NCBI RefSeq assembly: GCF_011045215.1
Contig: NZ_CP049202.1
DNA length: 64,000 bases
DNA from: Escherichia coli
GTDB lineage: Bacteria; Pseudomonadota; Gammaproteobacteria; Enterobacterales; Enterobacteriaceae
Direction: 5' to 3' (one strand)
Under the pieces are notes generated by a model. It saw only the letters and a program-made list of their open reading frames with translations, made no database searches and had not been told where the DNA came from. The position numbers and the translations under genes are program-made. This document shows positions 424 through 2,800 of the stretch, piece by piece (positions within the stretch are counted from its first letter, which is position 1; every line of letters starts with the position of its first letter).

Positions 424-1282
424 GTGATACCTGCCGTCAGGTGTTCGTGCATCGGGCCATAACCTGCAGTCGGGAGTTGAACACCTGACGACAGGAAATG
501 AGCCAGGCCAGCAACCACGCGGGCTGACAGAGAATCAGAACCTGAATCAGCCCGGAGTTATTCCCGTGTCAGTACTTCACGACCTGACGCAATTACCCGA
601 CTCAGTACTTCAGAGCCCACCGCCGGTACCTGCCCGGCGATCCCCCCTGTACAACCCCATCGTCAGACGGCGCTCATTCGTATGCGCTGCCAGTGACTCG
701 CCTGAAAAATGCGTCAATATGAGTTCGCCGGAACGATACGAGAAACACAAAAAAGCGGCGTCAGAAATCAACTTTAAGCTCGCGTTCCAGTTTATCGCGA
801 CAGAAATAATCCGGCGGGGACTATCCCGAAACGACTGGAGCATCTGCGGGGTGCTCTGGAAGCTGTGTTCATAACAAAACGCCCTCAACCATCAAGGTCG
901 AGGGCAGTTAAGATATCAAAAACCCGTTATCCGGTGAAACGCAGTACCACTCCGCTTAAGTGAACAGCATTACCCCAATGGAGGTTTTTATTGGATGAAT
1001 TAACTTGTATGACAAGGGGTACAGCAGTAGTAACATCCATTGATTTTATGCTCTGGCCAGCGGCTTTTTGCACTCAATACTGCACCATGACAGGATGAGT
1101 GATGGCCCAGAGGAATTTGGTTCTCTGACGCTGGCATGTAAGAGCAGCCATTGGTCGCATCATGTACTTCATGATCACCATTTAATTGTGGATTCTTGTT
1201 AATTATATAATTAGGCATTTACATATCCATTGTTAGCAATTGCAAATTAGACTGCTTATTTTCCTTTTAAAATAAATGGTTA

Positions 1283-1453
1283 TCAAGCGTGTTGGATTAA
1301 TTTCCAGGTTACGCCTTTTCCATTGTATGGAGGCATTATATTGCCTTTAGCAATCGGTGCTGTAGTTGAAGGGGTTCCGACCACTTTCCAAATCCCACTT
1401 TCAGGGCATTTTTGTCCGGTAGATGCAGTTGTTCCAATTGGTACTTTAGACAT
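1283..1453 (-). CDS. small hypothetical protein (56 aa) in AT-rich segment
   Basis: ATG at 1453 preceded by AGGA-type Shine-Dalgarno; no family recognised. Confidence 0.3.
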   Translation of the reverse strand: MSKVPIGTTASTGQKCPESGIWKVVGTPSTTAPIAKGNIMPPYNGKGVTWKLIQHA

Positions 1454-2104
1454 CCTGATTCCTCTTTTGTGTTTTATCCGTATTGTTTTTGTGTAGCAAT
1501 ACAAATGTCTATATTTAGGAATCTGTTTTCAAGAGAACGTTGAGGACATTTTTTACGGCAGTGATCGCTATCACACTTTTACTTAAAATTGGGACGACAA
1601 ACGATAGGCATACTGAGAAACTGAAATTTTTGTACGCATCGCTCGTTCAGCGATGGAGTCTCCCTGCGCTGCAATAACGCAATTGTACAATATTGTACGG
1701 TTGCCAAACGTGGCTCAGATACAATGTGCCGTCAGCCAGTCTTATGGTTATATGTTTGTAGTCTATCTTATAATCAGTTTTTGATGGTGTTCAGTGACGG
1801 AACCATCTGGAGCAGAATCCCCGTTTTTCAGAACGATTCAGTATTGTTCATGATAGCCAGAAAATGGTTTTCGAAACATAGATGAATCCAGAAGTTAGCT
1901 AAGCAGGTTCACTCGATGGTACAACCTGGAACACAAGCACACCTGTATTGCAGGCTTACAACCGCCAAGATATTGACACCACTTTTGTTGCTTGTGCAGT
2001 ATTGTTTTTCATGCTCTCCACCTGGTCCAGAATATCTTGAGGCCCGCCAAGACAACGGAACCGATGGTCACTTCTGTTTTCCTGGCGGTGTTAGCAGAGA
2101 CAAA

Positions 2105-2395
2105 TCAATAGACTGCGTGAATATCGATGGTTGCACCACATGCCTGAGCATATCTTGTCAAAGTTTTCATACTGGCTCCTAAAGGATTACTTTCCAGCCG
2201 GCTGATGGCTGACGGGCGTACCCCCATTCGTTCGGCCAGCGCTGACTTTGTTAACCCCGCTTTTTCTCTCATTTCGTACAACATTTCTACCATCTCCAGT
2301 TCTTTATCGGCATCTTCATAGCCTTTGACAGCTTCCGGAGTATTAAGCAGTTTTTGCTTTACCTGGCTGAACGGAACACCTTTTACTTTCATCAT
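2105..2395 (-). CDS. higA: HigA-like antitoxin, XRE-family helix-turn-helix
   Basis: 96 aa with C-terminal HTH (LTKSALAERMGVRPSAISRLE); 4-bp overlap with the upstream toxin gene. Confidence 0.7.
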   Translation of the reverse strand: MMKVKGVPFSQVKQKLLNTPEAVKGYEDADKELEMVEMLYEMREKAGLTKSALAERMGVRPSAISRLESNPLGASMKTLTRYAQACGATIDIHAVY

Positions 2396-2703
2396 TTCAT
2401 CTCCTTCAGGCGCATCCTGGCGATTTCAATAGCTTTTGTTGGTGTCTTTTGCGTCTTTTTCACAAATGCATGCAGCAGATAGATTTCATTACCCGTTGCA
2501 TAAGCGTACAGTGTCCTTGCGACATTTTTATCCCCGACTCTCAGTTCAAAAAGTCCTCCACCAATTACACGGCTGTGAGGCATTTTCATTTTATTGCCTT
2601 CCTGTTCCAGCCGTTCAATCAATCTGGCCATGCGACCACGTAGATTATCTGGTAATTCAATCAACTCATTCAGTGCGGCCGGGTGAGTAATCACATTAAA
2701 CAT
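2392..2703 (-). CDS. higB: HigB-like toxin (RelE/ParE superfamily), toxin-first operon
   Basis: Start at internal ATG 2703 with GGAGG Shine-Dalgarno; about 103 aa; toxin-upstream/antitoxin-downstream order typical of higBA. Confidence 0.65.
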   Translation of the reverse strand: MFNVITHPAALNELIELPDNLRGRMARLIERLEQEGNKMKMPHSRVIGGGLFELRVGDKNVARTLYAYATGNEIYLLHAFVKKTQKTPTKAIEIARMRLKEMK

Positions 2704-2800
2704 ATTATAGCCTCCGAAAGGATAAAATACATCAGAACAGGAAAATTGCACAAATATAAAATTTCACTGATAAGTGAAACACATGTTAAGTACAGTTTTG

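Follow-up and report, generated by a model that had tools for sequence, protein, structure and literature searches.

Bacterial switches of the CapH/CapP type derepress divergent immune operons, as well as small DUF2188/DUF3892 operons, upon DNA damage (bioRxiv 10.1101/2022.04.27.489752). TaeI of Acinetobacter baumannii, an immunity protein of the type VI secretion system (T6SS), neutralises the Ntox15 DNase TafE through direct binding (PMC9973263). Here, these systems and several small-protein families are compared with two small genes found in a 64,000-nucleotide stretch of plasmid DNA from Escherichia coli (contig NZ_CP049202.1 of assembly GCF_011045215.1), hereafter called the window. A preliminary description, made from the sequence alone, had noted two minus-strand open reading frames (ORFs) of 72 and 56 amino acids (aa) in an AT-rich segment next to the toxin–antitoxin (TA) locus higBA, and both are present in the ORF list as it described them.

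1000..1218, minus strand: coding sequence of the 72-aa protein, ATG start, Cys/His-rich, PHROG 4298
1283..1453, minus strand: coding sequence of the 56-aa protein, MSKVPIGTTASTGQKCPESGIWKVVGTPSTTAPIAKGNIMPPYNGKGVTWKLIQHA, a stand-alone 'CPESGxW' domain

The 72-aa ORF had been called Cys/His-rich, and its product indeed contains six Cys and seven His residues. The good ribosome-binding site ascribed to the 56-aa ORF is also there, the ATG at 1453 being directly preceded by AAGAGGAATCAGG; this ATG lies inside a longer frame at 1283..1504(−) that encodes 73 aa from a TTG codon, and initiation at the internal ATG gives the 56-aa protein.

Evidence That Both Reading Frames Are Genes

Comparative data show that both ORFs are, as judged from their patterns of substitution and distribution, genuine and independently conserved protein-coding genes, because differences are biased towards third codon positions, the antisense frame is broken in other taxa, and homologues of the 56-aa and 72-aa proteins form 1,096 and 4,909 clusters, respectively. 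The differences of the 56-aa ORF at codon positions 1/2/3 amount to 3/3/17 relative to a Leclercia plasmid, 5/4/30 relative to Serratia, 9/10/26 relative to Sphingobacterium and 7/10/33 relative to Akkermansia, and those of the 72-aa ORF to 15/12/36 relative to Vibrio and 19/16/46 relative to Pseudomonas syringae, a pattern of purifying selection in each case. The frames, which the preliminary description had regarded only as possible proteins, are conserved in sequences far more distant than related plasmids, so its refuting condition, a lack of conservation, does not apply. The finding is not a new system; it exposes two unannotated, widely distributed small-protein families, of which the 56-aa one is exceptionally conserved and linked by its gene context to stress and immune switches.

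Gene callers predict both ORFs on a near-identical public contig, and the exact proteins are held by NCBI as 'hypothetical protein [Escherichia coli]', the 56-aa protein on 61 contigs and the 72-aa protein on 53. On the Leclercia plasmid NZ_CP087285, PGAP calls a 94-aa ORF at 1218-1502(+), opposite the 56-aa gene at 1286-1456(−). Since this antisense frame is interrupted by stop codons in Serratia, Sphingobacterium and Akkermansia, the deposited Leclercia annotation is on the wrong strand. The homology between the window and the Leclercia plasmid starts exactly at the stop codon of the 56-aa gene and reaches about 110 nucleotides (nt) upstream of its start. The 56-aa gene is also unannotated on small plasmids of Klebsiella and Salmonella, as is the 72-aa homologue in several Javan prophages, in agreement with the earlier remark that such small proteins are easily missed.

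The 56-aa Protein Family

A single-sequence search with the 56-aa protein retrieved 1,096 clusters at 90% identity, the listed matches being 75–92% identical, with members from Serratia, Klebsiella, Yersinia, Desulfovibrio, Akkermansia, Bacteroides, Sphingobacterium, Lutibacter and others. None of the listed matches carries a Pfam domain or a name, and no Pfam or NCBIfam model covers the family. A pattern scan of 100,044 species genomes yielded 299 loci with the gene, distributed over Gamma-, Alpha-, Beta- and Deltaproteobacteria, Bacteroidota, Planctomycetota, Verrucomicrobiota and one spirochaete. An alignment of 40 sequences has 18 invariant residues, including G13, C16-P-E-S-G20, W22, P41-P42, W50 and the C-terminal Ala, and the domain is summarised by the motif G-x-x-C-P-E-S-G-x-W ... 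M-P-P ... W; C16, W22 and W50 stay invariant even across far more divergent members. Synonymous sites are near saturation between phyla, indicating that the similarity reflects selection and not recent transfer of identical DNA. On this evidence, the 56-aa gene is under very strong purifying selection across phyla.

The 56-aa protein is basic, with an isoelectric point (pI) of 9.9, and its AlphaFold2 model is predicted to be all-beta with four strands (predicted local distance difference test score, pLDDT, 88). PF14168 (YjzC-like) aligns with the window protein at only 13.7 bits (E 0.08), the gathering threshold being 25 bits, and only five of 23 diverse relatives match this model, all of them below threshold (best E 0.002). 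A comparison of the family profile (A3) with the 'protein L' of the Leclercia plasmid by hhalign gave a probability of 78% and an E of 1.7e-5 over 50 aligned columns with 32% identity. The two Cys/His knuckles that would provide four ligands are lacking: the family has Val or Thr at the C-x-x-C positions and conserves only Cys16, so it is predicted to be zinc-less. By these comparisons, the 56-aa domain is a distant, predicted zinc-less relative of the zinc-ribbon-like 'protein L'/YjzC proteins.

The 5.2-kb Leclercia plasmid encodes the 80-aa 'protein L' at 1841-2083(−), and this gene and the 56-aa gene are paralogues that have diverged. The 56-aa gene itself has diverged paralogues in tandem (40–60% identity), no more than a few hundred nt from the conserved copy, in Desulfovibrio (loci L046 and L048) and in a metagenome-assembled genome (MAG) of Bacteroidales (L106). 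Defence-system hidden Markov models of PADLOC-DB 2.0 gave no family at E ≤ 1 for either the 56-aa or the 72-aa protein. A literature search by sequence motif, which included the supplements of a human-microbiome small-protein survey, found no occurrence, and nothing informative was found in the YjzC literature. A microcin or a ribosomally synthesised and post-translationally modified peptide was rejected, since there is no leader, no export or modification genes are present, and the fusions are intracellular.

Domain Fusions

In the 56-aa product, a small beta domain that had not been described stands alone. Searching 1.8 billion representatives with a profile gave 364 relatives, and in about 10 of the best 150 the domain makes up the C-terminus of a larger protein. 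The fusion partners are a TIR_2/ThsB-like TIR domain in three representatives, a receiver domain (Response_reg) placed N-terminal to the 56-aa domain, and a ribbon-helix-helix (RHH) domain of the CopG/BrnA type, next to which an ORF gives a weak BrnT-like match. In other relatives, Sel1 repeats are followed by two copies of the domain, and one further fusion is a GlxA-like protein of 1,308 aa. The contigs with the TIR and RHH fusions are too short for an informative gene context.

The only NCBIfam match is a sub-threshold one to TaeI (NF041834), to which the window protein aligns at profile positions 235-268 with 14.3 bits (E 0.021), and the longer Sel1-repeat relatives give weak local matches with E-values of 2e-4 and 1.4e-3. 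The cut-off of NF041834 is 450 bits and the 56-aa relatives score 14–21 bits. Some Serratia copies of the 56-aa protein bear the UniRef label 'Sel1'. The likeness to TaeI, weak and local, is a lead only.

Regulators and Neighbours of the 56-aa Gene

All ORFs within 3 kb of the 56-aa gene were clustered in 85 loci and checked against Pfam. In other genomes, the 56-aa gene comes first after dedicated inducible regulators, which are either a CapH/CapP-like XRE/M78 pair or a kinase/receiver pair. In 13 of the 85 loci, all from Flavobacteriia, a TPR-HATPase_c kinase gene is followed by the gene for a 221-aa receiver protein and then by the 56-aa gene, mostly 100–165 nt further on. Downstream of the 56-aa gene in these loci is a co-directional array of small genes encoding DUF4236, YidD-like, TerB-like and unknown proteins. 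Such arrays (L038, L043, L045, L051, L061 and others; at about 3.2–9.4 kb in each locus) begin with the 56-aa gene and a gene for an unknown 75-aa protein; besides the YidD-like, DUF4236 and TerB-like genes, they hold one for a 421-aa coiled-coil membrane protein, and the whole set is a 'small-gene regulon'.

In 16 of the 85 loci, a helix-turn-helix (HTH) protein of the XRE type and a Peptidase_M78 protein of about 290 aa are encoded near the 56-aa gene. The pair is divergent from the 56-aa gene across 108–181 nt in 12 loci (Acinetobacter, Rhodobacterales, Thalassospira and Nitrosomonas), whereas in three Planctomycetota loci its two members are fused together and co-directional with the 56-aa gene. 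The remaining locus, in a Bacteroidales MAG, has the M78 gene at a distance of about 1.9 kb on the upstream side. The sole sequence match of the M78 protein in the PDB is CapP (7T5T, E 8e-10), and the XRE protein matches CapH (7T5U), DdrO, ImmR and SinR. The intergenic regions contain TTGAC-type promoters directed toward the 56-aa gene and share the conserved element TTCGAT...TATACGAA. In one genome, inspection by eye placed a candidate DUF3892-like gene directly upstream of a 72-aa homologue. Neither TPR-kinase/receiver nor XRE/M78 regulators are present in the window, where the sole hint of regulation comes from a CRP-like box; there is no M78 peptidase, and the sole XRE protein is HigA, encoded 650 nt upstream of the 56-aa gene.

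The 56-aa gene also occurs alone in unrelated settings, namely in the Serratia chromosome, where it is near-core, beside IS1595 in Akkermansia and in a small-gene island with AbiE in Sphingobacterium.

The 72-aa Protein Family

The 72-aa protein matches phrog_4298 over its full length (E 4.1e-24, 85.6 bits), residues 1-71 aligning with positions 1-69 of the 70-position profile, and this match places it, at the level of sequence, firmly within PHROG 4298. Therefore, the earlier statement that no assignment was possible no longer holds at the family level, the 72-aa protein belonging to PHROG 4298 and the 56-aa protein having a YjzC/'protein L' sister group. PHROG 4298 has no assigned function, and so membership gives no mechanism. 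A single-sequence search with the 72-aa protein found 29 clusters and a profile search 4,909, all of about 72 aa, unnamed and without Pfam domains.

Within the family, H19, C43, C62, C65 and C69 never vary, C25 and H70 show a conservation of at least 90%, and most members keep H16, suggesting one or two zinc sites. With at least four conserved Cys/His ligands, the 72-aa protein is probably zinc-binding. Its AlphaFold2 model (pLDDT 86.6) has a predicted beta-beta-beta-alpha-beta arrangement, to which fold comparison gave no match. The N-terminal zinc domain of Ada (PF02805, PDB 1EYF) was tried as a relative and failed, showing no similarity above noise. The Shine-Dalgarno sequence of the 72-aa ORF is weak in the window (GGA), and its homologues have AAGGAG or TAGGGG.

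The 72-aa gene is probably an accessory ('moron') gene of prophages and plasmids. In Javan prophages, its homologue is located in the integrase/repressor switch region on the lysogeny strand, and 74 loci in IMG/VR have it mostly between the lysis genes and HNH/terminase. In 27 of 81 prophage loci, the homologue is directly followed, after about 40 nt, by the gene for a 79-aa protein (MLTVKVMSPGGGEEIHCG...); this protein, found for example at 4229-4468 of L154, is a second recurrent partner of the family. Fifteen plasmids carry a 72-aa homologue, including a 6.65-kb ColE1-type plasmid of Citrobacter, and island settings are seen with an integrase in Pseudomonas and with ParE beside the homologue in another genome. 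In Vibrio alginolyticus CP042449 (L003, 1-4531), HATPase_c_3, HEF_HK (PF19191) and Response_reg_2 (PF19192) genes precede the 72-aa homologue and a resolvase and IS110 follow it, a setting that looks like a conflict system.

Pairing of the Two Genes and Relation to higBA

In six of the 85 loci, the 56-aa gene and a 72-aa homologue lie side by side on one strand, in either order: the homologue precedes the 56-aa gene in four Bacteroidales loci and follows it in Aureibaculum and in the window. Since both families are rare, this pairing is far beyond chance. Most loci hold just one of the two genes. Five 72-aa loci had at first given the impression of no co-occurrence at all, which the survey of 85 loci disproved.

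The preliminary description had set the two ORFs next to the TA locus, and this adjacency turned out to be incidental. The higBA DNA (window 2027-2800) is found at 93–94% identity on 329 plasmids of PLSDB, none of which has the small genes. A gap of 650 nt separates the small genes from higBA, and each of them is found without the other on ColE1-type plasmids of 2.7–6.8 kb. From these comparisons it follows that the small genes are not components of higBA and that their adjacency to it is, on the sequence record, accidental. Conserved co-occurrence and a fixed partner order, as expected of a type II TA system, are not seen for the small genes. Small plasmids with either gene often have some TA pair (YafO, RelE/ParE or HigA); these pairs represent shared cargo regions and not a functional unit.

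Plasmid Copies and the Upstream Region of the 56-aa Gene

A tblastn search of PLSDB found the 56-aa protein on 673 plasmids, with 58 full-length copies, and most of the full-length copies among those listed are on ColE1-type plasmids of 2.7–6.8 kb. Yersinia p29807 (2,682 bp, three annotated genes) carries the gene as essentially its sole cargo, and further small-plasmid hosts are E. coli colicin N plasmids and plasmids of Citrobacter, Klebsiella, Salmonella and Leclercia. An unannotated remnant, truncated at its 5' end and covering residues 15-56, is present on about 600 large Klebsiella plasmids. This truncated copy, fixed on K. pneumoniae plasmids of 160–430 kb (for example NZ_CP079726 87481-87606, 83% identity), is presumably a pseudogene remnant. 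In viruses, the family is represented by none of the INPHARED records and by seven of 2.9 million IMG/VR contigs.

The 150 nt upstream of the 56-aa gene are 79% identical among enterobacterial plasmid copies and contain the following elements.

1454..1470, minus strand: Shine-Dalgarno region AAGAGGAATCAGG, directly before the 56-aa ATG
1480..1502, minus strand: inverted repeat GTATTG-N11-CAATAC, in the 5' leader or overlapping a promoter, largely conserved in plasmid copies
1504..1532, minus strand: candidate sigma-70 promoter, −35 TTGAAA at 1532..1527, 17-nt spacer, weak −10 GACATT at 1509..1504
1560..1575: CRP-like box TGTGATAGCGATCACT, TGTGA-N6-TCACA with one mismatch

Both AAGAGGAA within the Shine-Dalgarno region and the TTGAAA block are invariant in eight enterobacterial plasmid copies. 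The assignment of a sigma-70 promoter to 1504..1532 is a putative one, and a consensus scan gave TAGACA-18-AACAAT at 1511..1482 as an alternative match. The CRP-like box is one of only two matches to TGTGA-N6-TCACA with at most one mismatch in the 64 kb, and its half-sites are kept in seven other plasmid copies (TGTGA-N6-TCAC). Its centre lies 35.5 nt upstream of TTGAAA, at about −71.5, which by textbook CRP promoter geometry would be a class I position for putative CRP binding. A conserved leader RNA was rejected outside enterobacterial plasmids: across phyla, the 5' region is not conserved and only the ORF is.

Two further plasmid contexts were observed. At 1075-2847 of K. pneumoniae pKp202_5 (L188, 5.36 kb), the unannotated 56-aa gene lies just downstream of a gene for a 138-aa HTH protein, and the two are divergent from an NYN-domain nuclease gene. 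A 1,040-bp contig of the spirochaete Bullifex porci (L037) has a 56-aa leader nearly identical to that of the Klebsiella 5.36-kb plasmid, and it is likely to be a small enterobacterial-type plasmid or contamination.

Structure of the Locus in the Window

The surroundings of the two genes comprise the following features.

157-423: C-terminal fragment of an IS66 transposase, left flank
880..906, minus strand: strong terminator-like hairpin, 11-bp stem (seven GC pairs) and T run, 94 nt past the 72-aa stop codon
900-976: 77-nt end fragment of an IS4-family element, left flank, abutting the low-GC segment
977..2026: low-GC cargo segment of about 1.05 kb, with both small genes and about 520 nt without a detectable gene
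1219..1282, minus strand: 64-nt spacer separating the two coding sequences, with a promoter-like match TTGATA-17-GAAAAT at 1286..1258
2105-2395, minus strand: higA (HTH_3), a neighbour outside the feature
2392-2703, minus strand: higB (Gp49-like, Gp49/PF05973), a neighbour outside the feature

The AT-rich character first noted is confirmed by a GC fraction of 0.355–0.445 over 1001-1700 in 200-nt windows, compared with 0.55–0.60 over 1-700 and about 0.53 past 2900. The segment had been placed between an IS66 end and higBA; the higBA side of this placement is right, whereas on the other side the IS4 fragment, and not IS66, abuts the segment. Its left edge is the end of the IS4 match at 976 and its right edge the start of higBA-plasmid homology at 2027, and the DNA between them is missing from the other higBA plasmids. 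More IS66 copies lie beyond higBA on the right flank. The remainder of the window has genes of IncF-type tra size, and the locus, about 40 kb away from the tra genes, belongs to the IS-rich replicon side of the IncF plasmid and lies outside the leading region.

The spacer contains no terminator-like hairpin and does contain a promoter-like match, so that both co-transcription and separate transcription of the two genes are possible. The hairpin at 880-906(−) adjoins the IS4 end fragment; it may terminate the small-gene transcripts or belong to the insertion sequence (IS) remnant. Rfam covariance models gave no match at E ≤ 1 in 800-2900, indicating that no known riboswitch or small RNA is present there. 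In the gap 1454-2110, blastx against all neighbour proteins and blastn against all loci found no gene remnants, and only the conserved leader was detected. The part at 1504-2026 consists of about 520 nt of low-GC DNA without a conserved ORF, an Rfam match or likeness to the neighbours of homologues. The GC-rich (55–60%) part at 520-900, between the IS66 and IS4 fragments, has overlapping ORFs of 102 aa (+) and 92 aa (−), and the public gene call there is a 77-aa product without a Pfam match; this part is probably IS-derived debris.

Proposed Role and Alternative Explanations

The explanation that we favour, and to which we give a little more than an even chance, is that the two ORFs are genuine cargo genes encoding inducible binding modules that act in a stress or conflict setting. 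The 56-aa protein would be an inducible, cytoplasmic, non-enzymatic binding module, expressed under DNA damage, infection or starvation signals. Its target may be a highly conserved cellular macromolecule, most likely a nucleic acid or a nucleic-acid-handling complex, and its binding would modulate growth or defence. The basic pI, the invariant Trp, the zinc-ribbon ancestry, the receiver, RHH and TIR partners and the switch triggered by single-stranded DNA together point weakly to a nucleic-acid target. In that same setting of stress or conflict, the 72-aa protein would act as a binder stabilised by zinc. A more far-reaching version, which is attractive though doubtful, is that the 56-aa 'CPESGxW' protein is the stand-alone version of a sensor or effector domain, new to science, of conflict and stress systems that binds a universal target and imposes dormancy or protection, with the PHROG-4298 zinc protein as a frequent partner. 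It would be a minimal module of a single gene, switched on by DNA damage (CapH/CapP-like), two-component or cyclic AMP-CRP signals, and tiny ColE1 plasmids would then carry the smallest known inducible defence or tolerance cargo.

The main rival, which we consider rather unlikely, is that the 56-aa protein serves as an orphan immunity protein or an antitoxin-like one, shielding its carrier by binding and blocking a toxin such as an Ntox15-type DNase from neighbouring bacteria. The weak similarity to the C-terminal part of TaeI, an immunity protein that does bind and neutralise such a DNase (PMC9973263), would fit this, as would the relative joined to an RHH antitoxin of the BrnA type with a weak BrnT-like match beside it, the 'Sel1' label on some Serratia copies and the tandem paralogues in Desulfovibrio and the Bacteroidales MAG. 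However, the TaeI scores fall far under the 450-bit cut-off, the conserved neighbours of the 56-aa gene include no toxin gene, and the TIR and receiver fusions would be left unexplained; a cross-phylum identity of 75–90% is moreover opposite to the rapid divergence usual for immunity proteins. Such conservation could instead mirror a conserved host target if both proteins were anti-defence or establishment factors inhibiting a conserved host restriction or immune component, and both are small, lack enzymatic motifs and occur on tiny plasmids, in prophages and in an inovirus. This explanation is quite improbable, since the locus is outside the leading region, some 40 kb away from the tra genes, and the 56-aa family is almost absent from viruses. 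Its near-core status in the Serratia chromosome, its position under host-type CapH/CapP-like and two-component regulators and its fusion to TIR, a defence-side domain, also speak against an anti-defence role.

The arrangement in the window, with two adjacent genes on the same strand, a 64-nt spacer lacking a terminator and higBA alongside, together with the recurrence of the pairing in six of 85 loci, might suggest an obligate two-gene module, that is, a TA pair or the third and fourth components of higBA. We regard this as very unlikely, and the distribution largely refutes it: each gene usually occurs without the other, their order is reversed in Bacteroidales, 329 plasmids have higBA without the small genes, and the Leclercia homology stops exactly at the 56-aa stop codon. 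That the ORFs are chance frames in AT-rich non-coding DNA, or that the real gene is on the plus strand as called by PGAP over the 56-aa region in NZ_CP087285, is scarcely conceivable, although the weak Shine-Dalgarno sequence of the 72-aa ORF in the window would agree with it. The third-position bias sits in the minus frames, the plus frame has stops in Serratia, Sphingobacterium and Akkermansia, and there are thousands of full-length homologues; the comparative data refute this explanation.

Small proteins are systematically under-annotated, and the 56-aa gene is an example of this, with its wrong-strand call, its unannotated plasmid copies and about 600 Klebsiella remnants. The 56-aa family is a good experimental target because it is near-invariant across phyla and has no Pfam or NCBIfam model and no literature that was found. 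Its appeal also lies in its place as essentially the sole cargo of a 2.7-kb plasmid, in its TIR and receiver fusions and in its placement under a DNA-damage switch shared with the cyclic-oligonucleotide-based anti-phage signalling system (CBASS) and other immune operons. If the domain is an effector or a sensor, it would be a very compact new building block of bacterial stress and immune systems and would account for some of the cargo of cryptic plasmids. If it is merely a stress-induced housekeeping protein, the annotation is still corrected and two new domain families are defined.

Comparison with Known Systems

Like the 56-aa protein, the DUF2188/DUF3892 proteins (Lau et al., bioRxiv 10.1101/2022.04.27.489752, citing Burroughs and Aravind 2020) are short and uncharacterised, and they occupy the same immune-operon slot, divergent from an XRE repressor and an IrrE-type peptidase. 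They differ in that no sequence relationship to the 56-aa protein was detected and in that a regulator of this kind is lacking beside the window copy. The T6SS immunity protein TaeI shares with the 56-aa domain a weak similarity at profile positions of about 192-271, and relatives of the domain also combine Sel1 repeats with two domain copies; in contrast, the window protein is only 56 aa long, lacks Sel1 repeats and has no effector gene nearby, and the scores are 14–21 bits. As for PHROG 4298, homologues of the 72-aa protein occur in Streptococcus Javan prophages, Staphylococcus phage 187, Erysipelothrix phage SE-1 and the Vibrio inovirus vB_VipaK, whereas the window copy is plasmid-borne.

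YjzC (PF14168) and the 80-aa 'protein L' (phrog_15514) are in the same size range of 55–80 aa as the 56-aa protein, have no assigned function and share with it the motif order G-x-x-C...G-[IV]-[WY]-K ... I-A-x-G-x-x-x-P-P ... W-x-L. In the Leclercia plasmid, the 56-aa gene lies directly beside the gene for 'protein L', which is a protein of small enterobacterial plasmids; 'protein L' has both a C-x-x-C knuckle and a cluster of His residues, whereas the 56-aa family retains only Cys16 and is far more conserved than the YjzC and 'protein L' proteins.

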